Assembly (NCBI RefSeq): GCF_963506605.1 | Contig: NC_083276.1 | Span: forward strand, 85,498,001 to 85,562,000 | Reading direction: 5' to 3' | DNA: 64,000 nucleotides | From: Zootoca vivipara | Lineage: Eukaryota | Position numbers and translations under genes: made by a program | In this document: positions 6,702 to 50,000 of the stretch, in pieces | Layout of the letters: each line of letters begins with the position of its first letter | How positions within the stretch are numbered: position 1 is the stretch's first letter | Notes under the pieces: generated by a model | Told to the model about the DNA's origin: nothing | Databases searched by the model: none | Seen by the model: the letters and a program-made list of their open reading frames with translations, nothing else

Positions 6702-6949
6702 TCCTGCCAGCCTAGCAGTTCGAAAGCACGTCAAAGTGCAAGTCGATAAATAGGTACCGCTACAGCGGGAAGGTAAACGGCGTTTCCGTGTGCTGCTCTG
6801 GTTCGACAGAAGCGGCTTTGACTTGTAATGCTGGCCACATGACCTGGAAGCTGTACGCCGGCTCCCTCGGCCAATAACGCGAGATGAGCGCTGCAACCTC
6901 AGAGTCGGTCACAACTGGACCTAATGGTCAGGGGTCCCTTTACCTTTAT
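6702..6949 (+). mobile_element. Sauria SINE (Squam1), 5'-truncated
   Basis: Ends in GGGGTCCCTTTACCTTT, TSD TATTGGTAG (6693-6701 / 6950-6958), homologous to the other four copies. Confidence 0.88.
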
Positions 6950-10900: not shown

Positions 10901-13900
10901 GGACTAGAAAGAGAAGAAAACATAACATAAAAGAAGCCAGCAGCATATTTTTTAGTTACCTGCCATGCTCGGGCTAATATATTTCAAATTACCAGGCGCC
11001 ACCAACATCATTTTTCTAGTTGACTGGATGCCTGTAATTTTTAAACCTTCAATTACATAGAGTACAGGTCTCTAAACTGTACACTCATGGTCCAATGCAT
11101 AGAAATCCAGTGTCTATAATAGATTTCAGTTGGAAGCTGTATGCAAGACTTTCAAGGATGTGAACTTCTGCCAGTGATAGCTCAGATAGGTAGAAAATAA
11201 AAAGGAACTGGGGTGCACATCCCATTCCCACAATAAGCTTTGGGTGAACAGAAGAGTATATTTTATCAGAGTGCATTAACTCATTTCTTGCCCAACACTT
11301 TGGTTCAGTGTGTTTATGTCAATAATAGACAAAATGTGTAAACAGAAAAATTAGGAATTTGGTGTTTCCACCTCAAATTGTGGTTTGGACCACCCCAAAT
11401 CATAGATTCACACATGCAGGATAATGTTATCTAGAGATGACAGACTCATAGACTCATATCTAATGCAAGTTTTTTAAACACAGGACACTGTCAAATGTGT
11501 TGGTCTAAGGCCATTGTCAATGATAGCCAAGCACATGTAGAAAAGAATAAAGAACTGGGGAAGGGATGCAGTTAACTTTGGTATATCACAAATCATCCAC
11601 ATCTGCAGGGTGGTACTCTCTAGGATAGCATAGAGTCACATCAAGCCCAATGCTTTTTGGAGTAGCAAGGTGCTATCAATTGCATGGGTCTACACCAGGG
11701 GTCAGCAACCTTTTTCAGCCGTGGGCTGGTCCACCGTCCCTCAGACCATGTGGTGGGCCGAACTATATTTTGGGGGGGAAATAAAAATGAACGAATTCCT
11801 ATGCCCCACAAATAACCCAGAGATGCATTTTAACTAAAAGGACACATTCTACTCATGTAAAAACACGCTGATTCCCGGACCATCCGTGGGACGGATTGAA
11901 AAGGCGATTGGGCTGAATCCGGCCCATGGGCCTGAGGTTTCCTACCCCTGGTCTACACCAATAATTGTCAAAATATGTACAACTCTACTGCTGGACGTGT
12001 GAGTATATGGTTTGGTGGTTCCTAAGTTCCATCTTATTTTTTTACACATTTTCGTTGTCGTTGGCATAGTTTCACACCACACAGTGTCTTGTGTCCAAGC
12101 ACTGTGTTGCTAGACCAAATGCAATTTGGGTGTAACCATTGTGGTCCAAAGCAAGTTTGGGTTGCACAAACCCAGTTCCTTATTCTTTTCTACATTTGTT
12201 GGCTATTAATTATTTGTTATATTAGAATAATATAATTTCTAAAATTGGCTATCATTGGACTACATAGAAATTTATAATCTGACATAAATTTTATGGATGT
12301 CATTCTTCATGAGATAGGTGCTGCAGCAGAGTGACAGACAGTTATTTTGCAAAATAGCTTCCACAAACGTACCAACGGGCACATGATGTCTACTGATGTT
12401 TCCCCTTTCTGACCTACCGTATCTCCTATGTCATCCAAGTGGAAATTGCTTTCAGTAATGACTTTGCTCCTGAAATTTATTATAGGACACTGGTCTATAG
12501 TGTTGGACTTGGACTTTGAAAACTTTGAAATGTACTCTAGCATTTGACATAATGTGGCCTAGATCAGGCATAGGCAAACTCGGCCCTCCCGATGTTTCGA
12601 GACTAGAATTCCCATCATCCCTGACCACTGGTCCTGTTAGCTACGGATGATGGGAGTTGTAGTCCCAAAACATATGGAGGGCCAAGTTTGCCTATGCCTG
12701 GGCTAGATCAAGGGCCACTGGCCTAGTGCCAAGGTACCTGCAAAGGCTTTCACTGGTGCCCCAGATACTGAGCTTAAGTAAGTAAGTAAGTAAGTCTCTA
12801 GCCCTTCTAGAAAGGAAGTTATGGGGTAAAATGTGCAGGTACTTTCTCAGCAATTTCTGTGAAATGAGAGTGAGAGTGAGATGGCCTCCTTTAATGTATC
12901 TCTTTGTCCCTGTAACTTTCCAGGCTGTTTTCCTCCACTTCGTTGCGTCCTCTATTCCTCCTCAGCATGGGCCTTATTGGTGTTCTCCTGTTGGAGAGAT
13001 GGAAGCCTCAATTCCTGTTGGATTTCTCAGGTAAGTGAAGTAGTGAAGGTTGTACAAGTAAAGGAAGTGTTGTAGTTCTGGAGCAGGGATAATCTTGGTT
13101 GATTCTTGCACTCTTGCAAGTTCAGTTCATTCCTTCCTGTCCTGCTGTGATTTCCTGCTGATCAAGCCTTGAACTAACACTTCCCCCCCTTTTGCTGTAC
13201 AGTACTACACTGAATAAAGAGTAGCAAGTACAGTAATGTTGTTCCCATCCCTGCCTAGGAACCAGCATTGCATTGAGGATGGGGAATTGCTGATTTGGCA
13301 AACAACCATTGCCTTCTTGAGATAGTTTGTTTCTGCAAAGCTAATTCTGTTTTACACCTTAATAGAAATCAAAGCAAGTTTTGCCACAGACTGTCTGGTT
13401 CACATGGAACACCACTGAGAATTGGAATTCTTTGGACTAAAGGCACTTGGTTAATATTTGCTGGGGGGTTTTCTTCATCATCTCTTTGCTTCTGCTCATG
13501 TTGAGAATGCATATTAGAACACCTTTCTGTTTGTTGAGGGCAGTCATGTGAGAAATGCTGTTTGGCTGAAAGATTAAATGTAGCAATTTGTTTTGTACAG
13601 TTAGATCTTAAGGAGTGTGGATGTAACTGCCTGCAAGTCTTAACCATTTTTGGATTAAATAGGTGGTATCATGAGTGCCTGAGTGAGAACCAGGCAACTG
13701 TGGTGTTGGCCTACAATGTCTAATGTCTTTCCTTCACTGTCCTCAAGAAATACACCCTTGGTGAGCTCAGCATGTGGTGCACCAGGGGCTAGCCTTTTGT
13801 TGGTCCAAGTGGAATCCACATAGTGGAATCTCTACTCAACTCTTCTTAGGACACTTTTTAGGACACATATGAGCAACAACTTGCAGTGTCTGGTTTTCAA

Positions 13901-22900: not shown

Positions 22901-24301
22901 AAGCTATCAATGGCTGCTGGCCACAACGGCTTTGTTCACTGTCCACTAGTGTGTCTGAATTCCAGTTGCTGGGAGTTCCAAGCAGGAAGAGTGCTGTTTC
23001 ACTCATGTCCTGCTTAACCCTAACCCTAACCCTTCTCATAGGCATATAAGAACAGGATGCAGGACTAGATGGGGCTTAGGTCTGATTCAGCAAGGCTGTT
23101 CTTATGTTTTTATTGCCCCCATATTGTAGTGCAGGGGGCAGGAGTGAGAATGAGATAGTGGTGGTACATCTAAAGCACCTAACGAGTACATGGCAAAAGT
23201 GAGATTCAAACCAAGGAGTTCCTGATTTGTACACACTCACCATAGCCACTATGATACGCAGCTCTCATACACCAGCATTAACATGCATGATACTGCATAC
23301 ATTTACCAGCTCAAATTTGTCCTGATGAGATGATTGAACAAGAAAGAAAGAAAAGCAGTAGCAAGATCATCGTGTGGTTGGTGACTTTTAATTAGGGAGG
23401 ACAACTGTAGAACAGCAGCAGCTGACCTGTTAATGAGAGAATAGGAAAGAACATTTCTGTGCAAGGTCAGGATAAGACGATAAGGAGGCACACAAAGGCA
23501 AGTAGAGTAGGTGTATTCAGAAAACAGACTAGCAGGTGAGCTTGGAATGCCAGTTGACAATTGAGAACAGGGAATTCTGGGGTGTTTGGGGAGGCCATGT
23601 TCATACTCCCAATATGCTTTTCAGATCTGGACCAGCAGAGCCTTCCCAGTGAGCCAGAAGAGTCCTTCTCCAAGGACTTGGCAGAGTTTCCTTCTGTGGA
23701 AGAGTTTCATTCCAGAGACTTGGGACCACCCAGTGAGGATGACAACTTTGCAGTGCCTGCCCACACTGCCCACCAACTGGACTCTGCTGAGAAAGACGGT
23801 GTGGCGGCAGCAGCCATGAGTTCAGACACATCCATCCTGTGCCTGGCCTCACCCCTGCACTTTGTAAATACGCACTTCAACGGGAACGGGCAGGCAGTGG
23901 CAGGAGGAGCCCTGGAGCCCCAGCCTGTCACTGCCCAAGGCCTGGGGCTGCACATCGATTCACTGAGCCAAGAGATTGTCACCACCGCTATCAGTACAGT
24001 AGTGCAGAACACTCTGTCAGCCCTGCTCCGCTCCTCTGAGGACGAGGGGCCTTCTCTCTCTGAGTTCCTGCCCACTGAGCCCGAGGAGAGACTGAGCTTC
24101 CAGGCCCAGCTGTCTGAGAGTGCAGAGGTGGGGGCGGCCTCTCTGCCTGGGGGGGAGGAGGAGGAGGAAGCTGATGATTTCGAGCTGCTTGATCAGAGGG
24201 AGCTGGAGCAGATGGATGCGGAGCTTGGCCTTTCTGGAGAGACAGAGGCTCCAGCGACACCGGCTCTCCCTCCTGAAGAAGAATCCTTGCCCACCTCCTA
24301 G
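7455..24301 (+). CDS. RETREG2: Reticulophagy regulator 2 (FAM134A), ER-phagy receptor, 554 aa; exons 7455-7714, 12924-13030, 16687-16717, 17600-17735, 19060-19144, 19410-19547, 19810-19904, 20172-20307, 23625-24301
   Basis: The spliced ORF is 1665 nt, all junctions GT-AG with consistent phase. Diagnostic peptides: [85 protein letters not shown], and the C-terminal LIR motif DDFELL (24173-24190). Confidence 0.96.
11696..11950. mobile_element. 255-bp non-autonomous hAT-Charlie element (OC1-like)
   Basis: Ends CAGGGGT..ACCCCTG with a perfect TSD GTCTACAC (11688-11695 / 11951-11958). The family name is from memory only. Confidence 0.85.
12565..12700. mobile_element. 136-bp hAT MITE, same family with variant TIR
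   Basis: TIR CAGGCATAGGCAAACT, TSD GCCTAGAT/GGCTAGAT, and an interior shared with 1693-1828. Confidence 0.88.
15571..15836 (-). mobile_element. 5'-truncated L1-like 3' UTR fragment
   Basis: The minus strand shows a pyrimidine tract, AATAAA and an A-tail. Degenerate TSD AAAGCTAGGGTTTCT / AAAGCCAAGGTTTCT. Confidence 0.55.
16479..16583. repeat. Foldback of a tRNA-derived SINE head
   Basis: 29-bp inverted repeat (16479-16507 / 16555-16583, 26 of 29 matching) built on a tRNA-like 5' half. Confidence 0.65.
21720..23105 (+). mobile_element. Degraded CR1-type LINE fragments in RETREG2 intron 8
   Basis: Remnant peptides HVGTND (ORF1 esterase-like), [12 protein letters not shown] and [15 protein letters not shown] (RT-like), with frameshifts and stops. 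Confidence 0.7.
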
Positions 24302-29056: not shown

Positions 29057-32000
29057 TCAGGCACTGTGTGCAGGCTGCAGGAGGTGGATCAATTTCTTAC
29101 AATGCCTTGATGATGAGGGCCGTGGGCTGCTGTAGGCACTAGTCTGAGGTTTGTTACATGAAAGTGCTTCCAACTTTTCACTTGCTCCGAGTGACACCAG
29201 CACCTGGAAAGGAGATTGGGACAGATATATGTTGTGCCCTGACATAGCCTATTGTGCTAAGCTATGTAGGGCACTACCACAATTACTTTGAGAAGGCCTG
29301 TGTTTTTAATCCTGCCTCCAACAACACGTCCGCATTATCATGACACTGTGGTGGAACGTCCATCTACTGCAAGTAATGCACAGCTGATTGAGGAATCTGT
29401 TATGTTGGGGATGGGACTGAAAACAAGGCCCCCCCTTTGAGTAATTATGGTAACTCCCTCAATGTGAATAACACAGTATTAGGACTCTATAGAGAGTCTC
29501 ATAACTCCAGTGTATCTTTAACATTTGGTACCGAGAAAGATGTCATTCTGACAGAGCTGTTCAATAGTGGAACGAACAGACTCTCACGAGAGGTGCTGGA
29601 CTCTCCTTCCCTGGAAGTTGTTAAACGGAGGTTGGATGGCCACTTGTCACATATGATCTAGTTGAGATTCCTGCATTGTAGGGGGTTGGGCTAGATGACC
29701 CTCAGGAACCCTTCCAACTTTACAATTCTATGATTTTGGGGGAACACAGTCATGTTTTCATAGAAAGGGGACTAGCAACTTAGAGTTGTATTCAGTGTAC
29801 TGTCAGTGCAAGGCCTTTTGGCTGTGCAAAGTAACTCCTCTTCCTCCCTGCATACCCTCTAAATCTGTTACGGGGCTTCCACAGCCATCCAAAGCAAATT
29901 TGGGGAAGGTGTGAGGTGCACAAGAATCAAGGAGAGTTCCACTGCACAGATGCCAATCCTGCACTAACAGAGCAAGTGCATTGGATACCACCCTTACACA
30001 TAAAAAGTGATGATTGTAACTAGGTAAAGGAAGAATGAGATCTACTGTTGGATGACCTAATATAAGCTCAGGGACACTTTGAACCAACAGAAAGTTATCA
30101 TGGAAAAAACATCTATTCCTTGAGAATCCACTTGCTTTGTCACTGGCTGTTTGTAACGTGCTTCTGCCATAGAAAGGAGGGGTCAAGACAATATGGCAGC
30201 TAATAGCAGCAACGAACTCTCAAGGTCCCCCCCCTAACAAGAACCTACCAATGACATTTTCTTTTTTTGCCCCAATGTACAAACCTCAATTCTTGACCAG
30301 CAAGCAAAGCTTCATTATCCTCAACAACCATGGCAGGTAACCTTGTAATAAGGCTTCCGTTATGCATTGTCAGGAATTAACTGAAGCACAATAAATCTGA
30401 CTGCTGGTTTATTAAGGCCTGCCCTCAGCTGGCCGAGTCTTTTCCCTCCACAGTTGCTGAACTAATACCTGGTGGATCCTGGGCTGCTGGCCAATAGATC
30501 GAAGAGCAATGAGTGCTGCCTCTTGCACAGCTGGTTGCGAATCATGGCAGGCCATATCCAATAGACGACCAGGTACCCTGCTCTGGATCAGCAAATCCTC
30601 CAGTTCCACCGACTGGCAGCCCAAGTTGCCCAGTGCTGAAGCCGCATTACAGCGGGTCTTGGCTTGCGGATCACTCAGGAGCTGAACAACCCAAGGGACT
30701 GCTTTGCTGAGGGCTGGAGTAAGAGGGCCAGCCTGGTAGGCTGCATTGCCGACAGCAAAGCTGGCTGAGCGGCGCACATGTTCGTCCTCATCTGAAAGGC
30801 GTTCCAGCAGATGTTCCAGCAGCCCAATCTGGTCCTGCAGAACCTGGGGAAACCCCTGTCTGTGGCGCAGCAAGTTCCCCAAAAGGCTGCACGTTTTGGC
30901 ACGAACTGGGCACTCTTGGTGGCACAGCAGGTGGCTCAGTGGCTGGGAAGCAGAGTCTGAACCACATAGGAGTCTCTGTAGGAAAGGCAGGTGAGCTGGA
31001 CTGGCCCGGGCTATGTGGGTAAGCAGGGAGAGCAAGTCTGCAGTAAGGGCTACTTGGTCTGATAGCAAAACGGCAGACAAGAAGGCAACAGCATGCTTTG
31101 AGGCAGCCACCCCCACCACCTGCTCAATGACTCCCTCGTCGCTCAGCACCAAGTGGCACAGGAGACTCAATGGCAACTCAGTCTCTGAGAAGGGAAGGTG
31201 GTGAATGCAGGCCTACAAAGAAAGCAAAAGCAGAATAGTGTCTCGAAGTGTGCATACCAGTATGAAGTTGGCACCAACAAAGTTGTGTTTGTGCAAAGAC
31301 TTCTGCTTATGCAATGGAACTTCGTTTCCTCACCCTAGCCACAAAATCTATTTGTAGTCTTTCCACAAACTGGACAACTTCGTTGGACATATCTCTGAAC
31401 CTTTATCATTCCAAAAATGTTTTCCATTAAGGGTAAAAATCCCCTTATGCTTTTATGAGGCTGGCATTTCCATCCCTTCCCCAGCCTACAACCACCTTCA
31501 AAAAAGGCATTTGGTACCTCATTTTATGAAAAGCAGTTTTTTTAGTGCATCCACATAAGCACAGCTACTATGCATCACGATGAAAGGCATTGCTTTGTGT
31601 GGAGCAGGACAACTGGTGTGGCTAAGGCAGAGTCTGCATCCTTGGGCAAAGGGGGAAAAGAGAGCTAAGATCCTTCCCCCTGGCTTCCCTTTTCTAGTGC
31701 TTAGACGACCATCATGAGAAAAGCTTTACCTGGAGTAACCGTGCAGGGATTTCAGAGTCCCTTAGACCTGTTGTGATAAGCTCTAAAGTTTCAGGGTCCA
31801 TGTCCAGAGCAAAGGGGAAACAGAACAGCTGGCAAATTTGGAGCACAACAGCTGACACCAGCTCTGGGTCACCATCCTCTCGCATCTGCCTGTAAGAGGG
31901 AGGAAAGCCTTCATAGTGAGGTGTTAACTTCCAGCTGTAAGTATATTTGGGCTGCAATAGTAAGGTCCAGATGCTTGAAGGAAACAGCCTAGTGAAACAA

Positions 32001-35000
32001 TATCTATTAGTAACCATGCCACAAGAACAGTAAGGGGAGGGTTGTTGCTCAATATGCATATTTTGCATGCAAAATGTCCCAGGTTCAGTCCCCATATGAG
32101 AAAGAAGTCTGAAACCCTGGAGAGCCTCTATCTGTCAAGTGTAAACAATAAATGAAAATGAGATAGACTAATAGTCTATCTTGGTAAAAGGCAACATCCT
32201 ATATTCCATCTGCCCTTCCCTGGCCTTCAGCCATTACATGCTGGTTTTAAGGGATGTCTTGAACCAAAAGTTAATTGCTCTGAGCCAAACCACTGCTTTT
32301 CCTAAAAGAAGCAAATATGCTCAAGTTACGTTATACCAAAGCAGAAATAGGCTTAATGTGCACACCTTATTTTGATTGTAATTTTTGGAATTAGGAATCA
32401 AATACATCGGCGAAGTTTGGAAAGAGGGCAAGGAATAAGGTGTACATAGGGATGCTGTAATAATAAGCTGAAACTGAGGAGAGTTTGGGAGATGTGCAGA
32501 GCACAACTTGTGCCTCTTTCTAATCTAATCTAATCTAATCCAATCCATTGGCCTGCTCAATAAAAACCTTTACCGACAAGTATAATCCTTAAAAACTTCA
32601 TCTTTAATATAAAAACAGGTTGTTAGAAAGCCGAATTCAGCTGCATGTATCTGGAACATTCCTGAGATTGAACATAGGGACACAGAAGGTTGCATATCAT
32701 CCATTTCTGCGTCTTGGGGCAGCTTTCTTGCTGAAAATGGGAGTTGGTAAGAAGGGGAGGAGCTAAACCAAAATCAGGGGTTGGGGAGATTGTATTGCTG
32801 TGCTGTGTTTGGATAAATTACTGTAGAAATTGGAGTTCTTGGTGAAGTCCAGAAATAAACAGTAAACTGCAAGAACTCGGGCCAGGAGGAAGATGAATTT
32901 CAAGTAAGTCTTCAAAAGGTTTTATTTATGTAACGATAGGATGAATTCAAATAGGAATCAATTCCAGTATGATAGTGAGGCAAATAAAAATTATTCCAGT
33001 GAAAAAATCCCAGGACAAGGCCCTGTTTCACCAATTCTTCATCAGCAATGTTTTAATGGTCAGAGTGTACCAAGTATGTTTGCCAAGTATTTTTTCACTG
33101 GAATTAATTTTTATTTGCCTCACTATCATACTGGAATTGATTCCTATTTGAATTCATCCTATCATTACATAAATATAACCTTTTGAAGACTTACTTGAAA
33201 TTCATCTTCCTCCTGGCCCGAGTTCTTGTAATTTATCGTGTTTGGATAAATGAAAAGTATGTTTCTATGCAGCAGCCCTCTGCCCTCGTCCCACTCTAGC
33301 AGCATTTAGTTTAGTTCCTTCTATAGCTCAGCCCTGGATTTATCACTCACGTTTGTGCCAAGTGAGTCAGGAAGTCAGGTTCAAGCAGCTTGCTCAGGGT
33401 TGCCATCATGACCCCATTGGGCTGGCCCAGCTGGAGAAGGCACTGGTGAGGCTCTCGTGTGAAGATGAAGAGGGCTAAGTTGAGGAAGAGCAAGGTTCCT
33501 ACAGCAGGGAAAGTATGAGCGATTACCCCTTAGCCACCTATTCAATGTCCCCTTGCCTTTCCCAATCGGAGAGGTGACGGCCAGAACCAGGCCTGGCACC
33601 ATGGAAAGACTGTGGGCATCCTTATGTACAGCCTCACAAAGATGAACCTCCTCAGCTCTGTCTTCTGACACGTAAATAGCAAGAGGAAACACCCAAGAGG
33701 CAATTTGGGGTGGTTCTCACTAAAGGAAAGCCACTTTGTACCTTGTGGTGAGATGAGGTTCCAGTATGGCTCTGGTGCCTGCTGGCCAGCTCTCGGGGTC
33801 TCTCCTTCCATCACTGGCTCCTGAGAAGTCAAGTGGAGCACCATGGCAAAGCGATGCCACACGATGCCCCAGAGTTCGGAGGTAGCAAACTCCCGCACTA
33901 CTGCTGCATCTCCCTGACAGAAGAGGAACAAGCCCCAGAGCAGTGAGATGGGAACCCAAACACCCTATTCTGCATTGCGTCTCAGGGATTTGGCTCATCG
34001 GAGACACCTTAATTTCATGGATGTTCCCTCTGTAGCCTGACAGACCTAAACCCTTTCTGACTGGACCTCTCTTCCCACCTTATATTTTCAAAGATGGAAC
34101 AGAGTCAATCCTGCAGAATCCTTAGACTCTGCTTTTGTTTTATTACATTTAAACTATAACAATATATTTTAATTGGGTGGAAGCAAACTTCTAGTCCATA
34201 AGAGGAAAAAAACAATGTGGTAATATATAGGTGGCTATAGGTGAGAATTTGGCTGTAGTTTCTTCACATGCACAAATATACATACACAGCAAATTGTAGA
34301 TATGAATAGTGCAATGTCCTCAACAGTATTTTTTTAAATTTTCAAATTCTATAGAAAGAACTGAGCCACTTGGCTTGGAAATTATCATATCTGTATAACT
34401 ATGTTAGCAAACTGGGTTGTTTAGCTCCAGTTCTAGACTCAGCTGTCTTTCTCTATCTCAGCGTTACCCAACCTGGTGCCCTCCAGATGTTTGGGACTCC
34501 GTCTCCCATCAGCCCCTGTTAAGCGTAGATTAGAAAATGGTTGAGGTGATGACAATTGTGGCCCAAAACATTGAGGATGCCAGGTTGGGGAGGGCTGCTC
34601 TATCCTTTGACCCAAAGTGGCCTTTCCAGTTGTGGATAGGGCAACCTCCAAGGAAGTCCATGAACAGACAGGATAGCACCTGGATGAGAGCCAGTTCCCT
34701 ACTGCCAAGAGCTGAGGAGCTACACACGGCCCTGGCGGAATTAAGCAGGCCATTTCTTACCCTACCCCATTTTGCTTCACCTAACAGCAAATACTTTCCC
34801 TAATACCTCCTGGATCATTTGTGTACATCCTCTTGAGCAGCCTTTGCCAACCAGGTGCCCCCAGATGTTAGACCATAACTGTTGGACCACATGCTGGCTG
34901 GGGCTAATGGGAGTTACAATCTAGCAACATCTGGAGATCAAGTTGGCCAATGCTGCTCTAATGAATGCAAGGGAGCTGCTTTGTGGAGCATGAGGTCATA

Positions 35001-38000
35001 CCTGGCTTAATAGCTGCAGCATCAAGAGCAGGAGCCCATCATAGAAGCCGGCTCCCATGGGAGGTGGCAGGCATAGCTGAAAGACACCAAGAAAAAGGAC
35101 TAGACCTGAGACAGTGAACTGGCATGGCAAGCATGATGCAGCCAGTGGCCTATGTGTCCTGATTTGCCCCTGTCTGTCTGGAGCTGGTTTCTTACCTCCG
35201 CAGGTTCTGTGAATACAGTAGCTATAATGGCCATGGCTTCCTCTTGCCTGAGCATCACAGTGGCACCATTTTGAATGAAGTATGTCAGCAGCAATCCTGC
35301 AGCACTCTGCATAAGAAAGAGAGACCCCTCTGTGTGCAGGAACGGCCAGAATGCCTTCTTTACTTGCACTGGATGCAAAACTAGTTATTAGACTCCCAGC
35401 AGGAATGGCAATGCTGCTTTCTCCTTTATAGTCTACAGAAGTCCAACTCCGATACCTCTGGCATGACAGGGTAACAGGCAGACCATGCCAGTATCTAGTA
35501 CACACTTGTGGGACATGTGGGAATAGTGGGATACCTCTTTTTCACAGCTTGTGATGCTCTGTCTACTATACCTCCAACTGTGTGGGGGAAGATAACAGCC
35601 TGGTCCTTTCCTTAACCTTTGTGAGAATCCATCACTCACCATCAGGTGCAGTGTGGAAGAGTTTCTCTTGAGCACAACCCTACAGCTGGGGCTACTGACA
35701 ATCAGATTACACATATGGGGTAAAAGAATCTATATAGACAGTTCTAAACTACCCCGGAGTAGAGATTACTCACTAAAACAGAGGTAGCTGTTGCATGGTT
35801 GAAAAGAGCCATGGTGTCCTTCAGCACTATTTCATACCTAAACCACAATCAAAGAAATAACAGCATTAGAAGGATGAAGCAACGAATGCCAAGGCCCTCA
35901 TCTTCAAAGCTAGCAATACTCGCAAGACACTTAAGTTTGTGCCTGGAAAAAGAATGGCAGCCGAAAACTAAGACTGGGGCTGCACTCTGGCTCAAAAATG
36001 TGGTTATGTCATGTAGCGGCTTCAGTGGAATCTTAAAAACCAGTAATTTCATTTTCTAAACATCAAGAAAACTTCTTGGCAACATTGTTGCTCACTGCTG
36101 GGTAGTTTCTGCTTCAGACTAAGAAACCATCAGTTCGGCATGGCTTACAGTCACCAGAAGTCTAGTCCTTAACACAGGTGCCAGCTCTCTCTTCATGTAT
36201 AAGGTAAAGGTAAAGGACCCCTGACAGTTATGTCCAGTCGCAAACGACTCTGGGGTTGCGGTGCTCATCTCGCCGAGGGAGCTGACGTTTGTCCACAAAC
36301 AGTTTTTTGGGGTGATGTGGCCAGCATGACTAAGCTGCTTCTGGTGAAACCAGAGCAGCACACGGGAATGTTGTTTACCTTCCCACTGGAGTTGTACCTA
36401 ATTATCTACTTGCACCTTGATGTGCTTTCAAACTGCTAGGTTGGCAAGAGCTGGGACTAAGCAACGGGAGCTCACCCCGTCATGGGGATTCGAACCGCTG
36501 ACCTTCCGATCGGCAAGCCCTAGGCTCAGTGGTTTAGATCACAGTGCCACCTGTGTCTCCTTATGTATACTCTGTGTAAATATCTGGGAGGCTATTGCTA
36601 CTGGACCCCACTCTGGGCAAGCTGCTCCTGAGTTTAGGGCAGCTACAGCAAACATTAAAGGAGCGTAGTGGGAGGAATGTATTTGCTTACAGAGCAGGGT
36701 GAAGCACCATTGCACATCTTCCTGCAAAACATCTCTTGACTGGCACGTTTTGCGATGGGGCTTATCCCTCAAAACCAAAGTTGTGTTGAGAGATTTCCAG
36801 AGAAATGCAGATCAGTTTCCCTTTTTTGTCAAGCGCCTCCCCATTGGAGCACTGACTCTCCTTACTTCTTGCCAATCCACTTCTTGCCAATCCACACCAC
36901 TTAAGTCTCTGTGAGCCCTTTCCCTTGTTCCCAAGCAGTCAAGGCAAGAATGTGAATGGTGCCAAAGCAACAACACTTACTGAGGTGGGAGGATCTGTAG
37001 CTGGAGCAGCAGGAGGGAGAAGAGTCTCAGGGAGGCTTCAGCTGCCTGTATTTGTGCCACTTCAGTCAGTGGGACCTTTCAAAGAGACAAGGCTCAGTCC
37101 TGAAACACTGACCCCACAAACCATCACCTTTCCATCCCATATCCACTCCAAAGAGAAGAACTTCCTGGTTGGTTGCGAGCGCCGGCGGCTGTGGGAGAGA
37201 TTCCTCCCAGTCCTTTGAGGGGTTCTGGGGGGTCTGCAGAGCGCGCAGCCCCCCGAAACTTCGGATAGAGAGTTCCGAAGGCTTGGGGAACCCGGCAGTT
37301 GTCTTTTTTTTGCCTCCCTTCCCCCCGAAGAGCTCTAATAAGAGTCCGAGAGCGGGAAGGTGGAAGGCACGGCACAGCGGGTACAGCGCTTTCCCTTAAA
37401 GGAGAAGCTCCGTTTACTGGCGGCGGAACAGCAACCAATCTCCTTCAAAATCTACAATATCAACATGGAACCATCTGGCCATCGTGAGTAATGAATCTAA
37501 AAAGCTTTTAAAGTCTCTAATTTGGACGGATTTGGTCAAAGGGGAACCTAAAATTTATGGAGGTCGGGTTCTTCCCTCCCCCCTGTGGAAGATTGAAAGC
37601 AAAGACAGTCTCCGCAGCACTTTAACCATAAAGCTTTGTAACTTTATTTCTTGGACTTTGAACTATCTAAAAGAGAGCAGGGCTCTGGAAAATACCCTGC
37701 AGTGGACAGCAATATTTACATTTGAGATTGCTTGCTCAAACTGGAAGCGGGACTTCGTTCTGATCTCTCTAGCCGTTCGCCATTGTGACGGCACAAAAGA
37801 AATTTCCATATGAACTTCTGTTTACCCCTTGACAGGCTTTGATCTGCCTGCAACTTTCCTTGGAGGATTTAAGGATGTTTTCCCCCCCTATTTTATAGAC
37901 TATGCGACGTATCGACTTTTGAGCTATAAAGTGACTGTGTGAAATATTGTTCCTTTGCCTTGTTCCTTTGTCTTGAATTATTTTAATGAGCCAGTTTCAG

Positions 38001-41000
38001 TTTCAACATACAGGCAAGCATACAGAGACTGTGTTATAAGTTAGCAGTTTGGAACTCTCGTGCCAGCATTGACCTTGAAAAGACTGCCAGCTTCCACTTG
38101 TTTATACTATTTCACTGATAAAAAGACATCTGGACTACTGGCGGTGAAAGAGCTCTTACTGACTGACTTGAAGCAATCTATTGAGTGGAATTTTCCGCTG
38201 AACGGCTTGCTCTTTCACTAGACTGAATGGTTTATATTCTATTTTGTTGCTTTGATTAAAAGACATCTGAACTACTGGCTGAGACAGAGGGCTTAAGGCC
38301 TAAGTTGGGATTACTATCTGAGTGGAAATTTTTATTGAACTGTGTGCTTTGAGATTGGATTGATTGGAAGTATGGCTGGAACAGAGACTGGCAAAGAGAC
38401 TGGCAAAGGAAAGAAAAAATCATCCATCTCTGCTACTTTGGAGGAGCAAATCTTAAGTGCTCTTGATCGAAATTCGAGAGAACAACAACGGACTACTGAG
38501 GAACTTCGAAAATTGCGGGAGGAAGTGGGTGCAATTTCTAAGGATATTGCGCAGGTGAGAGCACAGGTGACTGGTGTGGAGAAGAGACTGGACCATCTCG
38601 AGGAGGAAAAGGTACCTGACTTGGAGAAGCAAGCCTACAAGACCAAAGTGGACTTAGCTTTTGTACAACTACGTCAAAAAGAAGGGAATCTCAGGATAAG
38701 AGCGTTCCCAAATATTGAGAAGAGTGATCTGAAAGAGGCAATAATTGAAGAATTTGTGAAGGCCTGGAACCTATCAAAGGAAGAGCTAGAAGGACAAATG
38801 ATAAAAGCATTTAGGTTTGGAGCAAAATCAAAAGGAGACAAGAAACTGATTAGTGATTGCTTGGTGTCATTTCAAACAAGAGAACAAAGAGATAGAATTC
38901 TGGGCCTACACTACGAGAAGACCTTAAAGGTGCAAGGAGCGCCAATAATAATTTTTAAAGACCTTCCAAAAATTTTTTTGGACCTGAGATCCCAATATTC
39001 GGATTTGGTAGCCATCTTGAAGAGACAAGGGATCAATTATAAGTGGGAATTGCCGGAGGGCTTGAATTTTCAATTTCAACAGAAAAAGATAAAGATCAGG
39101 TCAGAACAGCAGAAGAGAGAATTTCTTCAGCAACACGAGAGAGAGTTGTCAAGAGTTGGGTTAGCAACCTCCACCCCGGGCCAACCAGGACACCCGATTG
39201 AGTTGGATTCAGATTCCTTCTTGGGAGCAGGAGCTGCGGCAGCAATTTAGAGATGTCACTGAGGATTTTGTCATGGAATTCGAATGGCTTGAATTTAAAA
39301 CGGAAAAGGAATGAAGTTTACCATACCTTAGCAAAACAAAGATTGGACATAATATGCCTTCAGGAAACTCATATTACAAGAGCACATCAAAGACTTTTAA
39401 AGAATAATAAATTTGGAGAAGAATTTATTTCTTCGGATGATGTCAAAAAGAGAGGTGTGGTGATTTACGTGAAAGAAAAATTAAAGCCAAAGTTAATATT
39501 TAAAGATGAAGAAGGGAGATACGTAGCAGTGGAAATCTCATCGCAAGGCGAAAAATTGTTGATTCTGGGAGTTTATGCACCAAATGATGGAAAATCGGAG
39601 TTTTTTAAGAAATTGCATAACAAACTCTTGGACTATTTGGATTACAAATTATGCTTAATGGGAGACATGAATGGAGTGGTCTCTACATTAATGGACAGAT
39701 CACAAAGACAGTCTTGCACCAAAGAAGGAAGACTACCAAAGTCTTTCTTTGATTTGATTGAAAATTTTGATCTGATTGATACTTGGAGATTGAAAAATCC
39801 ATTGGAAAAAGACCAGACTTTTTTCTCAAATTCTCAACAATCGTGGAGTCGTCTCGATTACATATGGATTACAAGAGAGTTAGGACCAAAAATAAACAAT
39901 GTTGAGATCTGCCCAAGAACTTGCTCCGACCATAATGCTGTACTATTAGATCTAAGGGTATCTCTCCAGGGAACTTTCAGATGGAGAATGAACGACGCGT
40001 TAACAAGAAATGAGAAAGTAGTGGAGAAAGCCCAAAAAGTATTGAAAGATTATTTTGAGATAAATTTAAGGTCTACAACGGAGAAAAAAATTGTATGGGA
40101 TGCCAGCAAAGCTGTGATGAGAGGATTTCTAATTCAACAAAATGCTATAAAGAAAAAAGAAGCCAATGCAAATAAAGAAAAGATTCTAAATCAAATGAAA
40201 GAAAAAGAAAAGAAACTGAGGGAAAATCCTAAAAATCAACAGGTGCAGAAAGAAATTAAGGCATTGCAAGTTCAATTTTCTAAATTGATGAATCAAGAAA
40301 TTGAATCTAAAATTAAATGGATGAAACAGAAAGCCTTTGAGTCAGCAAATAAATGTGGAAAGTTACTGGCATGGCAATTGAAGAAGAGGCAGAAATTGAA
40401 CACTATTGTAAGTTTAGTGCAAGATGGAAAGCATCTGGAGCACCCGACAGAGATACAAAAAGCTTTTCAGAAGTATTTTAAACAATTGTATAAACAGGAA
40501 AATCAAAATAAAGAGGAAGTGGAGCAATTCTTGGACAAATTTGGGCTGCATAGAATCCCAGAAGAGAACAAATCCCTACTGTCTCAACAGATATCAACGC
40601 AAGAAGTGGAATATGCTATACAACAAATGCAGTCGGGCAAGACCCCAGGACCGGATGGTTTGACAGATGCATATTATAAGACAATGAAAGATTGGTTAGT
40701 TCAACCTTTGAAGGATTTATGCAATGAAATTTTGAATGGAGGAGAGGCCCCTGAATCTTGGAAAGAGGCTTACATTACTCTGATACCAAAACCGGACACG
40801 GATAGAACGCAAGTTAAGAATTATCGCCCAATATCCCTACTTAATGTGGATTATAAAATATTTGCTAACATTTTAGCCTCCAGATTGAAAAAGGTTTTGA
40901 AAGACTTTATACATCAAGATCAAGCTGGCTTCCTTCCGGGGAGGCATTTGAAAGATAATATTAGGAATATAGTTGACATTTTGGAAATGCTGGAGCAGAA

Positions 41001-44000
41001 GATAAACAAAAAAGCCATTCTTATGTTTATAGATGCGGAAAAGGCGTTTGACAATATTTCTTGGCTATTTCTAAAAAGAAATTTAGAAAAAATGGGAATG
41101 GGCAATGGTTTTCTGAATGGAGTAAAAGCAATCTATTCAGAGCAAAAAGCTAAGATAATCGTGAATAATATGGTGTCAGATGAGATTAGAATTGAGAAAG
41201 GTACAAGACAAGGGTGCCCTCTCTCTCCTTTGCTTTTTATATCGGTCCTGGAAGTCCTGCTTGACAGGATTAGAAAAGATGATGAAATAAAAGGTGTAAC
41301 TGTAGGGAAGAGACAATATAAACTTAAAGCCTTTGCGGATGATTTGGTGTTAACTTTACAAGAGCCAGAGTCCAGTGTACAGAGGGCTCTGGAAGTTATT
41401 CAAGAGTTTGGAAGGGTAGCAGGTTTCAAATTGAATAAATCCAAAACTAAAGTACTAGATAAAAATTTGAATAAGGAAGAGAGAGAGAAATTGCAAGAAA
41501 CAACTGGTTTATCTTTTGTTAAAAAAGTGAAATACCTTGGAGTGTATATGACTGCAAAAAATTTAAATTTGTTTAAAGATAATTATGTGAAATTATGGAA
41601 TGAAGTTAAGGATTTAGAAACGTGGACCAACCTGAAATTGTCTTTATTGGGCCGTATAGCAACGATTAAGATGAATGTATTGCCAAAGATGTTGTTTTTA
41701 TTTCAATCATTACCAATAATTGAAAAGCTGAGTTGTTTTAAAGAATGGCAAAAGGTGCTATCAAAATTTATATGGCAAGGGAAGAAGCCAAGAATCAAAT
41801 ATAAGATATTGACTGATGATAAACAAAGAGGAGGCTTCTCTCTACCTGATTTTAAAATTTACTATGAAGCAGCTGCCTTTTGCTGGTTGAAAGAGTGGTT
41901 TACATTGGAAAACGCTGATATTTTGGACTTAGAAGGTTATGATAATGTTCATGGTTGGCATGCATATGTGTGGTACGATAAGGTTAAGGCCCATGGAAGT
42001 TTTAAAAGGCACATTGTTAGAAATTCACTGTTCAAGGTTTGGTCCAGATATAAAGATTTATTAGAAAGAAAAACGCCAAATTGGCTCTCGCCTTTGGAGG
42101 CCAAGGTTCGCAAAAGATTAAATATGGAGACCGGTTGGTTGAAATATAGAGATTTGTTGATTCAAGATGGAGACCAATTTAAATTAAAAACATATGAGGA
42201 GTTGAAAGGTAAATTGGATGATTGGCTCCAATACCATCAGATAAATGAAGCGTTTAAAATGGATAGAGTAATTGGCTTTCAAATTGAGAGGTCAAAGGTG
42301 GAAACAGAATTGTTAGAACCTAAGACGAAAATACTTTCGAGAATGTATAAATTGCTGCTAGAATGGCATACAAAAGATGAACAAACTAAAAATGCTATGA
42401 TTTTGTGGGCAAAGGATGTGGGACATAATATTATGATAGAGGATTGGGAAAAGTTGTGGAAGGAAAATATTAGATTTACTGCGTGTAGTTTATTAAAGGA
42501 GAATATAATGAAAATGATGTACAGATGGTACCTTACACCAGAAAAGCTAGCAAAGATTTACCACAACAATGACAATAAATGTTGGAAATGTAAGAAAGAA
42601 ATAGGTTCATTTTACCACATGTGGTGGACATGTCCACTGGTGAATGACTTCTGGAATAAGATTTATAATGAACTTAAGAAAGTGCTAAAAGGCACATTGG
42701 TGAAGAGACCAGAGGCATTCCTAGTGGGCATTGTAGGGAAGGAGATTCCCAAGAGAAAGGTATCCTTTTTCATGTATGCCACTGCAGCTGCGAGACTGTT
42801 GATCGCTAAATACTGGAAGCAGCAAACGTTACCAACGATTGATGAATGGCAGATGAAGATGATGGAATTTATGGAATTGGCAGAGATGACCGGACGAATC
42901 CGTAACCAGGGAGAACAAGCAATTGAAGAAGAGTGGAAAGATTTTAAATTGTATTTAAAAAAATACGCTAAAGTAATATTTTAAGAATAGAAATTAAGTG
43001 GTAAATAAATCTGTGGATTAGGTAAAAGAGGTTATTTTAGAATAGAAAATAAGAATTTAGTATTAAAAGTGAATATTTAGAGGTAGAATTTGCTAAATTG
43101 GAAGTGTGTTTGAGAAACACAGGGACGGGAACCCGAGGAGGTCCCAATATACACTGTGATAAAGATAAGTTATATAGTTTTCTATTTTTTCTTTTTTATT
43201 TTCTGGTTTTTTCTGTTTTTCCTGACTTTTGTATTTTTGCTTTTTTGTATTTCCCCCATCCCTTCTAAACCTTTGTAAATCACTTTTCTATTGTGAAAAT
43301 CAATAAATATCTATCTAAAAAAAATAAAAATATCCACTCCAAAGAGAAGCTACCCAATGTTCCTCTCACAATGTTTTGCTCTAAAACCATGGTTATCTCA
43401 GTTCCCCTCCCCTGCCCATGCCAATCATGTTGGAACGCCTCTCCTGTTTCCACACCATCCTTTCCCTGATACAGTTTCCCGTTCCTTGTTCATTAACTCT
43501 CGAACCCCAGCATCTCTGGTTAAAAAAGGATCAGGGAGCAGGTTGATGAGAAAGACCCCCTGATTGAGACCAGGGAAAGCCACTTCCAGTGAAAGTGGAC
43601 AATATCAGATGGAAAAATAGTCTGACCTGGTAAGAGGCAGCTTCCTTTCTCCCCCACCCCACCTTCTTAGGGCTGAGACTTTGCATGTGTTCATGATGAG
43701 GCAGTTCTCTTTGCAGTTTCAGAATAAATAAATACCTTGCCTTCCAGGGCACAGATCAGGGAACTCAGCCTTTCTGGAGTTGCTAAGCAATGGCACAGAG
43801 TCGGACTGACATGGCAACAGGCATACAGGACCTGGGTGATGGAAATGCAAAGCAATATCAGACCACCGAGGCACCATCACTTTCTTCCCCAGTGAGGAGG
43901 GAAAAGGGAATGCATTAAGGCAAGTTGCCTCCAAGGATAAGATGCCCTGGGCACCAATTCCCCAACTCCCAGAGAAGCAAAAGGAACATGGGGAGATGTG

Positions 44001-47000: not shown

Positions 47001-50000
47001 GCTTGATGTTGATACTCTCCAGGATGCTTCCCGCTAGCTCCACGAGGAAGTGGGATAATCCTGTGTCACTGCAGAAGTTGTACAACAGCTCTGTGTCACA
47101 GCGGGTACCTAACAAGTTGCCAATAACATGGAGGGCAGGGCGAAGATGGGAAGCTCCCTCCAGCATTCCCTCCAGCACCTGTATAAGGAGAAGGGGTAAA
47201 TGTACATAGGACATGCAACTCTTCCCCATTCAGGGCAAGAGTCATGGCAGAAACAGAGACCTTCCCCACACCAATGCCTAAGGTGCTCTAGAAACACCAC
47301 GCAAACCACTGATCCCACAGTCACTCCAATCTTCAACAGCATCACAGCACACCCTTGTCACCCCAGAATTCATCCATGAGATGCTGCTCCCAACTAAAGA
47401 GTTAACAGCATGCCCAGCTTCCTTTCTAGGATCCACACATTTTTACAAGACCTCTATACCCTGTCAATTCTTAAGAGTCTCCATCTTTCCAAGCTGTCCC
47501 TAGTCTCTATGTATGTGGCTCATCATGTACTAGCTGAAAGGTCAAAACTACCAAAGGAGTTCAACAAGGAAAGAGTTTTTCCACCAGTTTCTTTCCTCTT
47601 CTCTCTGTAGGAAATCTCACTTAGCTTCTGAAGGACATACCCAGCAAACAGCAAACATACCGTGTGTGTGTGCGCGCGCACGTTTAGCTCTTCCCTACAA
47701 CTCACCTGCTGTCCAGAATCTTTGAGTCGGGCATGGATGCGCTGCACAAAAGCAGGGTCTCCCAGAAGGCTCAGTGGGGCACTCAGCTGCACATGGGCAG
47801 GATCTGTGGCATCTATCAGGTGCTGCCACTCCTCATCGCTATCCAACTCCTAAGAGGCAAGACTGAGTCATTGAGGACCTCCACCATCAGAAAGCCAGGA
47901 AAGTACTTCCTTGCAGCTATGCAAAAGACTGTGGTACCTGGCCATGCGCTCACCTCAGTCTCCAGATCCACAGTGTCAATGCTGCGTCTGCCTCGTGCTT
48001 CTGCTCTGCCACTTTCTGGCCTCAGCTCTGGGAATTCCCGCTCATAATCCTGTGTGATCCGATTCTCTCTGTCCATGAAGAGGGATGAGGTGCTGAAGGC
48101 AGGCTACACAGCAATGAAATGTTCTCACCCCAGCTTTGGTCTTCTCTTGTAAAGGACCCCTGGACAGTTAAGTCCAGTCAAAGGTGACTATGGAGTGCGG
48201 CACTCACCTCACTTTAAGGCCGAGGGAGCCAGTGTTTGTCTGCAGACAGCTTTCCAGGTCATGTGGCCAGCATGACTAAATCGCTTCTGGTGCAACGGGA
48301 CACCAGAGAGCACAGAAATGCCATTTACCTTCCCCCTGCAGCGATACCTATTTATCTACTCACACTGGTATGCTTTCGAACTGCTAGGTTGGCAGAAGCT
48401 GGGACATATATATGTCAGCTAATTCAGTTGTTTCCAGTGTTGTCTTGGTCATTTGGTATTACTTAGAGCAACAGAATCTCTATCTGAAAATCCTGCAAGC
48501 TGGAACTTACGTTTCTATGTATAACCTCATCCAGAGCTGTTTTGCTGAGCCTATGACTTCTACAGCAGTAAAAGATTTGGACCTTTCTGATTCTGTGTGG
48601 TGTCTAGTATTGCAAGCTTTAGATCTACACTTCCACTGCACATGTATCATATACCACATTCCCAACAAAATAAACACATTTCAACTCCTCCTTCTCACCG
48701 AGGTGTGGGGGAAGATTCCTTTTCCTCCCACTCCATTCCCTTTCCTCCAAGGCTAGGGTGCCTCTGTTCTCCAGCTGCCCGATTCGCTTCTCTGGGATCT
48801 GTCTGAGCAAGGCAGGCTTTGCGTGTGTGGCTCTGGACCCCCTTGGGGGTTTCTTCCTTAAACGAAGCCCTGGATTTCCCCATCTCCTGTAAGAAGTCAA
48901 GCAACACAGGAAGGTTCTAATGGACCAGACCCCACCATACCGTAAGGCGCCTTGCCAGCAATGGGGCTACCTGCCTCTCACCTTTCTCCGAGCCTCCTGG
49001 GCCATCTTCTGCCGTGCTTTCCTCAAGATCTTGGACTGGCCACTGTGAGGGGCCAGTGAGTGTGTCTGCTGGTCTTTCAGGGCCTGCAGTTCAGGAGGCA
49101 GTTTGCTGGTGAAAGGGTTGGTAATGCCTTGATCTGCTGTGTCATCAATCACTGCAAAAGAAAAGGTCCATGCGGTGACTGGGCTTGCTTGAATTGGGCT
49201 CTGTAAGGAAAGGCAGATGCAGGAGCCAGATGGGGGGAAATTGCAAGTAAGCATGGCAGCTGGTACTCACCAGTGACTCGCCCTGCAATGAAGGGGTGAT
49301 AGAGTAGCTCTGGCCAGGACAGGCGCTGCCGAGGGTCTTTCATCAACAGGCCTTGCAAGAAGCTCTACACAGAAATGAGAGATGGTCACTTGCACATCCT
49401 CACACCACTTACCGTCAATAACCCCAACTGCTAATTTTACCAGGAAAACCTTGGAGCCAATGAAATTCCTTGGTCGCTGTGGGAAGAGTCTATTCAATTC
49501 ATGCATACAAAAAGCACATTTTCTAGAATGTTCCCATTTTTTTCATTTTTAAGTTTCTAGCTCTGAAGATTACTGAAAAAAGTCTTGCAAACATGGCTGC
49601 ATATTCTGCCTTAAGAAAGAAACCTGGTGGCCCCAATACCACCAAAACATGTTTGCACACAGAACTACATTCCTTGGCACAGATGTAGCAATGTGGTGTC
49701 CTTCAGGCATTGTGGACAACATTTCCTTAACCACTGGACATGCTGGCTGTGGCTGATGCAGTCAAAATCATTGGGGGGCATCCCTGCCTTAGCAAGTACA
49801 CTCTTATCCCAGTCTAATCCCCACAGGCAGTGGGGTAGGATAAGGATTGGAGAATGCACTTAAAAACTGCATTTCTACCTTCCAGAAATACACACCAACA
49901 GCGTGAAAGAGGCTAAGTGGCATGAGTGAACAAAATCTAAGGTGTTCAAGATTCCAAGGAGAGAACAAACTCAAACCACAGATACATACAGTGTAATGTC

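Follow-up and report, generated by a model that had tools for sequence, protein, structure and literature searches.

A spliced Penelope-like insertion in lizard STK36 and a candidate hammerhead whose helix I coincides with a 3' splice site

An intron of STK36 in the lizard Zootoca vivipara contains a long foldback with a hammerhead-like motif in its loop, raising the question of what this structure is, whether the motif can act as a ribozyme and whether either bears on the host gene. We analysed the surrounding 64,000 nucleotides (the window), in which the host gene was recognized from an exon matching Podarcis STK36 at 98-99%. Tblastn on the window together with GT/AG ends defined a 1461-nt intron (33350 to 31890, minus strand) that holds the insertion in sense orientation, beginning 99-122 nt past the STK36 donor and thus close to the ~110 nt given in the initial annotation. 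The foldback arms at 32870-33008 (left) and 33089-33228 are reverse-complementary in exact blocks of 52, 11, 59 and 16 nt, and re-computation returned the same two substitutions and one indel between them as described before. The STK36-sense strand of the foldback folded at -248 kcal/mol. An exact 14-bp direct repeat brackets the insertion as a target-site duplication, with one copy at 32805-32818 on the element's 3' side and the other at 33238-33251 on its 5' side. Taken with the evidence below, it is highly probable that the locus is a spliced 5' copy of a Penelope-like element, inserted with an inverted fragment and the 14-bp target duplication, and that its hammerhead is likely dead, helix I having lost its 5' strand through splicing.

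The loop contains CUGAUGA...GAAAC...GUC at 33045 to 33014 (minus strand), the sole match to the hammerhead regular expression on either strand of the 64 kb. Compared with the consensus in the supplement of PMC4209133, the segment 33014-33045 reads as a type I minimal hammerhead core made up of CUGAUGA, an extra A, a helix II of 1-2 bp, GAAA, a self-complementary helix III and GUC, and the core proposed earlier was upheld as a Penelope-type minimal hammerhead. The proposed 1-bp A-U helix II was not, since its A corresponds to the additional base that lies unpaired between positions 9 and 10.1. Across the family CUGANGA, the extra base, a G10.1-C11.1 pair, GAAA, the palindrome and NUH are all present; in the window copy this pair has become G-U through a C-to-T change at a CpG (C11.1), where 27 of 29 sister copies have C. 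Helix II is 1-2 bp in both window copy and family, short of several base pairs, compared with 3-8 bp in the accessible part of the PMC4209133 alignment. A search with hammerhead models, one of the checks suggested in the initial annotation, gave no Rfam hammerhead match over 30000-36000 at E values up to 10. For helix III, pairing between two molecules was predicted at -18.9 kcal/mol and a hairpin within one molecule at 0; no second hammerhead core that could serve as a dimer partner was found in the 64-kb window. An ATG inside the core, opening a 43-codon frame by eye, was considered as an ORF start and rejected, as it is missing from those subfamilies that have ACG, AAG or AGG there.

A 22-nt stretch over helix III had 132 exact matches in the genome and its reversed control had 0, indicating that the hammerhead match did not arise by chance. 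A looser core pattern gave 498 genome matches, a figure that depends on a fixed 12-nt gap and includes inverted arms and duplicates. Among the best 40 of 654 candidates from a genome search, 39 other loci matched most of the 265-nt unit (window 33084 to 32816, minus strand) at 91-97%. All copy statistics given here derive from one genome; they make the STK36 insertion one short copy among hundreds left by a Neptune-type Penelope-like element. At L111-L116 (G000 C2 4.80-5.09 Mb) a single insertion is present six times in near-identical form with the same flanks, pointing to a local segmental repeat. Over 271 nt, 5 positions set the window copy apart from the majority sequence of 29 sisters, one of them the C11.1 change; the insertion, as anticipated in the initial annotation, is young.

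An inverted 5' piece of 23-216 nt was present in 43 of 75 spliced loci and measured at least 100 nt in 25 of the 75, while a crude script found an exact flank repeat of at least 10 nt in 23 of them. The right arm at STK36 is a piece of this kind, an inverted partial copy of element exon 2 (33089-33237, plus strand) whose last 10 nt mirror the 3' junction, and the left arm lies within exon 2 itself. Inverted arms thus arise routinely as by-products of insertion in this family, and because such pieces are so frequent the long stem, common in the family, gives no pointer to a role in STK36. A reading in which STK36 has adopted the foldback to control its editing or splicing would draw on a near-perfect 139-bp stem ~120 nt from the donor and on the donor-like GTAAGT that this stem buries; yet the insertion is young, stems of comparable size are frequent among the 75 loci and no sign of selection was seen, making adoption very unlikely. 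The GTAAGT itself (33194, minus strand) comes from the inverted arm and lies 156 nt past the true STK36 donor, inside the long stem. An assembly artefact, to which the 98% similarity of the arms might be attributed, deserves virtually no credence, given the three differences between the arms, the target duplication that brackets both and the same layout at many loci. We regard the STK36 locus as probably an ordinary dead insertion.

Other repeats populate the window. Another STK36 intron contains, in antisense, a pair of long open frames (303 and 1260 aa; 38339-42984, plus strand) that look like a nearly intact LINE that we take to be of L1 type. A dispersed repeat at 36193-36457, 48149-48405, 52456-52745, 55589-55846 and 6702-6947 is presumably a Sauria SINE, and palindromic MITE-like repeats of ~150 nt occur at 1686-1835, 12559-12706, 56594-56740 and 50285-50425. 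A 247-aa frame at 23558-24301 (plus strand) ends in an acidic stretch with DDFELL and resembles the last exon of RETREG2/FAM134A.

Copies retrieved through sequence upstream of the unit contained ~340 nt between exon 1 and the core. The insert begins GTAAG and ends TTCCAG directly before C3 of the hammerhead core, and the 31 copies in which both ends were found carry an intron of 63-430 nt with a GT donor and an AG acceptor. In the window copy the 340-nt GT-AG intron of its sisters (L032, L035, L036, L038-L040 and L054) is missing exactly at 33045/33046 (minus strand). This splice junction joins a 39-nt element exon 1 (33046-33084, minus strand) to exon 2, the remainder of which (32816-33006, minus strand) is 5' UTR of the element, contains at 32926 on the minus strand the AATAAA reported previously as lying downstream, and stops a few bases short of where the ORF begins in L231.

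Spliced and unspliced copies coexist throughout the family. Genome-wide, 80 exact spliced junctions were found for the young subfamily and 148 acceptor-type cores for all subfamilies. Counted by eye, the first 100 of the 498 core matches comprised 77 with an exon-1 end and 23 with an acceptor before C3; of the leading 30 among 132 young-subfamily matches, 26 were spliced, 3 ended early and 1 was unspliced. When 164 exon-2 sequences were clustered with the junction ignored, each of the 7 clusters with at least 6 members held both forms, and every spliced group had the exon-1 terminus characteristic of the subfamily to which it belonged. That a GT-AG segment was lost exactly in at least five subfamilies is most readily explained if splicing preceded reverse transcription. 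We rejected DNA-level deletion as an account of the missing introns, since their ends have just 1 nt in common and five or more subfamilies, with introns of different length, lost them exactly. Because genomic copies are precisely spliced, sense RNA processed by the spliceosome has served as template, at least for the spliced copies.

The 3' splice site TTCCAG adjoins C3 and, by its position and pairing, provides helix I with its 5' strand. For the subfamily of the window copy, a 7-bp pairing (-6.8 kcal/mol) was predicted between the intron end and the nucleotides that follow the cleavage site. The corresponding 3' strand of the window copy (CUGGGAU, 33007-33013, minus strand) lacks this partner, and the end of exon 1 provides 1 bp at +0.1 kcal/mol; the one surviving G-C pair is below a helix I of at least 2-3 bp. 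We compared 125 distinct contexts from loci L001-L160, which are related, were gathered in several searches and hence are not independent: 59 of the 61 acceptor-type contexts had 3-7 contiguous helix I base pairs (only 3 bp in 39 of the 61), against 0-1 bp in 64 of 64 non-acceptor contexts. In dimer cofolds the unspliced RNA formed helices I and III (-36.5), whereas the window copy formed no helix I (-28.7). A full helix I is thus confined to the unspliced sequence, both forms being present in genomic DNA, and the question raised earlier of whether the family consensus has a pairable helix I can be answered in the affirmative, but for the unspliced form only. The initial annotation also suspected that a poorly paired helix I might leave this copy inactive; inactivity is indeed probable, but helix I fails through copying from spliced RNA and not through decay. 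Since the copy is spliced and helix I keeps 1 bp, it is likely unable to cleave, and removal of the intron likely switches the ribozyme off in mRNA.

The pattern of variation was examined across the family. In 10 subfamily representatives the three bases after the cleavage site were invariant CUG, although in 4 of these sequences the search pattern had imposed the first base; all 27 columns that follow showed variation. Position 7 and loop II vary across the family, and catalytic positions are mostly constant. No compensatory change in helix I was seen among the copies; none would be possible, because splicing fixes CAG.

The parent element was recognized from an ORF upstream of intron-bearing copies. 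L081 contains a 675-aa open frame that matches RVT_1 (E 4.8e-8) and has DKG and YIDD motifs plus CIYAWICPCQKMYIG, read by eye. It also has a linker of the form CxxCxxC and a GIY-YIG-like motif that contains two cysteines. This frame, combining reverse transcriptase and a nuclease-like motif, is the linked ORF that the initial annotation had proposed to look for; together with the repeat family and the inverted 5' piece it bears out the reading of the foldback as a Penelope-type insertion with an inverted fragment. Pfam returned no GIY-YIG match on the L081 frame and 0 families on 3' fragments of the ORF from three proteins, and a PDB sequence search with the L081 protein returned 0 matches. 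The linker HFKCGRCNVC, found in L052, L054 and L081, corresponds to the CX2-5CxxC feature that the available text of PMC8557442 gives as common to Neptune and Nematis. The layout agrees with both and the linker alone does not separate them, and on the strength of the vertebrate host we provisionally assign the element to the Neptune type. The element has a separate upstream ORF. In four copies (L085:6522, L082:6399, L231:6617 and L232:6352 (minus)) two element ORFs overlap, with the reverse transcriptase frame at -1 to the upstream one, and G GAU UUU, which resembles a -1 frameshift site, lies within the overlap in all four.

An ORF search yielded 26 loci, 21 of which matched the ORF end; 18 of these 21 have a downstream core, in every case with an acceptor, and 3 have no core. 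In L231 a spliced junction is followed by exon 2 and then, 219 nt after C3, by the ATG and coding start, a layout that places the intron and the hammerhead in the 5' UTR. A hammerhead pseudo-LTR therefore occurs on both sides of the ORF, as 18 downstream repeats and, in L231, as the one upstream junction joined to the ORF. Because 18 of 18 downstream repeats keep the intron and the spliced copies are 5' pieces, intron retention appears to depend on position within the element.

The ends of copies carry information on how they were made. Among 74 spliced loci (one duplicate dropped, and loci beyond L130 picked for their spliced appearance), the 5' end lies 36-46 nt ahead of the junction in 45, while 25 fall short of this range and 4 exceed it, reaching at most 74 nt. 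The longer copies alone carry a TTTAA(A/G) box, which in L098 is 70 nt upstream of the donor and in others is similarly placed. The 5' boundary falls ~30 nt past this box and is therefore likely a capped transcription start, ~40 nt before the junction as judged from copy ends only, with which the start of exon 1 in the window copy would coincide. Unspliced copies behaved differently: among the first 30 of 148, 24 had no donor match, mostly breaking off inside the intron, and of the 6 that reach the donor motif none stops at the start-site boundary and 5 extend at least 70 nt. The 3' ends of 30 matches fell at 191-199 nt after C3 in 13 cases, six of them duplicates of one locus, and at 224-228 nt in 6, two preferred ends that fit the optional 30-40 bp tail of endonuclease-bearing Penelope-like elements and resemble the pair of internal start sites and the tail of the Anolis element PAc (PMC11167929). 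Spliced copies mostly end just before the ORF start, and copies run ~190-230 nt beyond the cleavage site, implying that their templates were uncut.

Spliced copies outnumber unspliced ones by ~3 to 1 and have a fixed 5' end, as a self-propagating non-autonomous family of SINE-like or retrozyme-like repeats descended from a few spliced masters might. We nevertheless consider such a family quite unlikely: the spliced copies are without the upstream TTTAA box and the intron, they occur in at least five subfamilies and match the unspliced form of each, no head-to-tail arrays were seen, and copy ends do not coincide with the cleavage site. The copies are single or inverted, not head-to-tail monomers, with ends at the start of exon 1 and 190-230 nt past C3. 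They are more readily understood as one-off 5' copies of spliced element mRNA.

Use of the element intron in vivo was assessed at L035 in three raw RNA runs carrying the same species label, ~6% of each being read, plus one contig set. In all, 20 reads (13, 2 and 5) skip the 340-nt intron, and they were rejected as proof of splicing since spliced DNA copies exist and could be their source. A further 194 and 18 reads join the element donor to a host exon 1.1 kb downstream, and the element intron donor is therefore used in vivo. No pile-up of read ends was seen anywhere at L035, including the cleavage site, where coverage was thin and the libraries were fragmented, and this absence was not counted for or against cleavage. 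A host transcript includes as one of its exons a 92-nt piece of the repeat (L035:1472-1563), spliced in through an acceptor within the repeat and out through the donor of the element intron; it was represented by ~240 reads in X13 and 17-18 in X14, its upstream exon lies near L222:5967 and the next at L035:2641, and it looks like a 5' UTR exon. L040, also considered as the exonised copy, was rejected in favour of L035.

These observations can be assembled into a model in which a promoter in the pseudo-LTR would start the RNA ~40 nt before the intron. As read from DNA, the spliceosomal intron ends exactly at C3, such that the CAG of its acceptor doubles as helix I. Unspliced RNA is predicted to fold a full ribozyme, probably by dimerising via the palindrome of helix III and perhaps aided by element protein; spliced mRNA could not fold it, and the message would be protected. 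Copy ends, and analogy with the PAc element discussed below, suggest that the element protein primes reverse transcription internally in the RNA, a little ahead of where the ORF begins. Such priming on spliced mRNA would yield short dead-end copies like the one in STK36, and on read-through RNA, priming in the downstream, intron-holding repeat would yield ORF-bearing copies that keep the intron. The inverted arm may stem from a second priming event or a template switch during insertion, with no role in STK36.

We tentatively propose that lizard Neptune elements carry a splicing-gated ribozyme, in which the 3' splice site is also the substrate-binding strand and splicing would compete with self-cleavage, sparing spliced RNA and cutting unspliced RNA; this is a possibility in which our confidence is limited. 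The short helices weigh against cleavage: in 39 of 61 unspliced contexts helix I has no more than 3 bp, and helix II has 1-2 bp. They are consistent with a motif that never cleaves in vivo, being instead a conserved fold or protein-binding site, or tuning the 3' splice site by pairing its AG, with the loss of helix I incidental. That no reads end at the site in L035 agrees with this, as do the unaffected in vitro insertion of PAc hammerhead mutants and the lack of reads ending at the PAc site in the available text of PMC11167929, and hammerhead function in these elements is termed unclear in the portion of PMC8557442 at hand. We judge a motif without in vivo cleavage somewhat unlikely, however: the variation at position 7 and loop II falls at positions that a working hammerhead tolerates, and the PAc motif, according to the same part of PMC11167929, cleaves with protein and shows C3/G8 rescue. 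If the splicing gate is real, then together with position-dependent intron retention it would give Penelope hammerheads a job and provide a simple reason for kept introns.

Comparison with known systems places the lizard family among Penelope-like elements with partly similar arrangements. The Neptune clade, as described in the accessible parts of PMC8557442 and PMC12602865, shares the C-terminal GIY-YIG with CCHH, the CX2-5CxxC linker, inverted 5' copies and a tail, and killifish Neptune also has a separate upstream ORF; those same parts report no intron or hammerhead overlap for Neptune. Animal non-LTR retrozymes resemble the lizard copies in being short, non-coding hammerhead repeats related to Penelope pseudo-LTRs, but in the available sections of bioRxiv 10.64898/2026.07.22.740005 and PMC7761336 they are tandem monomers bounded by the cleavage site, whereas the lizard copies are single and spliced and their ends ignore it. 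PAc, a Poseidon element of Anolis carolinensis, is likewise a lizard Penelope-like element with a hammerhead at the repeat-ORF junction, and its reverse transcription starts inside the RNA at two tail-defining sites, on an uncut template (PMC11167929, text available in part). Its hammerhead, per the same portion, cuts only with protein and is dispensable for in vitro insertion. PAc differs in clade and in having its ORF start inside the hammerhead, as opposed to ~220 nt downstream in the lizard Neptune-type element, and the available portion of the main text of PMC11167929 makes no mention of splicing or an element intron. Our literature search returned no report of this splice-site/hammerhead arrangement in reptiles; the family or its intron may be catalogued in Repbase or Dfam.

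The closest parallel is Penelope of D. virilis, which has a 5' UTR intron within the pseudo-LTR, an extra base before helix II and a palindromic helix III (accessible parts of PMC4209133 and PMC2377424). There, the intron's 3' end maps to the 5' side of helix I and the spliced and unspliced hammerheads differ (PMC4209133, in part). Both D. virilis forms share four bases before C3 and hence the same 2-bp helix I, whereas the lizard junction falls at C3 and leaves one G-C pair; judged from the available part of PMC4209133, D. virilis Penelope has a weaker version of the same overlap. Its intron is retained in genomic copies, unlike in the lizard, where spliced genomic copies are the majority, and its promoter is internal and TATA-less, in contrast to the putative upstream TTTAA box of the lizard element (PMC4209133 and PMC2377424, both in part). 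The role of Penelope hammerheads and the reason for kept introns are posed as open questions in the available text of PMC8557442, and an antisense template was proposed for intron retention, and left untested, in PMC3846280. The spliced lizard copies rule out such a template for themselves, and spliced 5' copies set against intron-bearing downstream repeats offer a simpler account of retention. The family, in which helix I of a hammerhead seems to be a splice site, is a variant worth testing, and it provides natural matched pairs of spliced and unspliced 46-nt ribozymes for direct assay.
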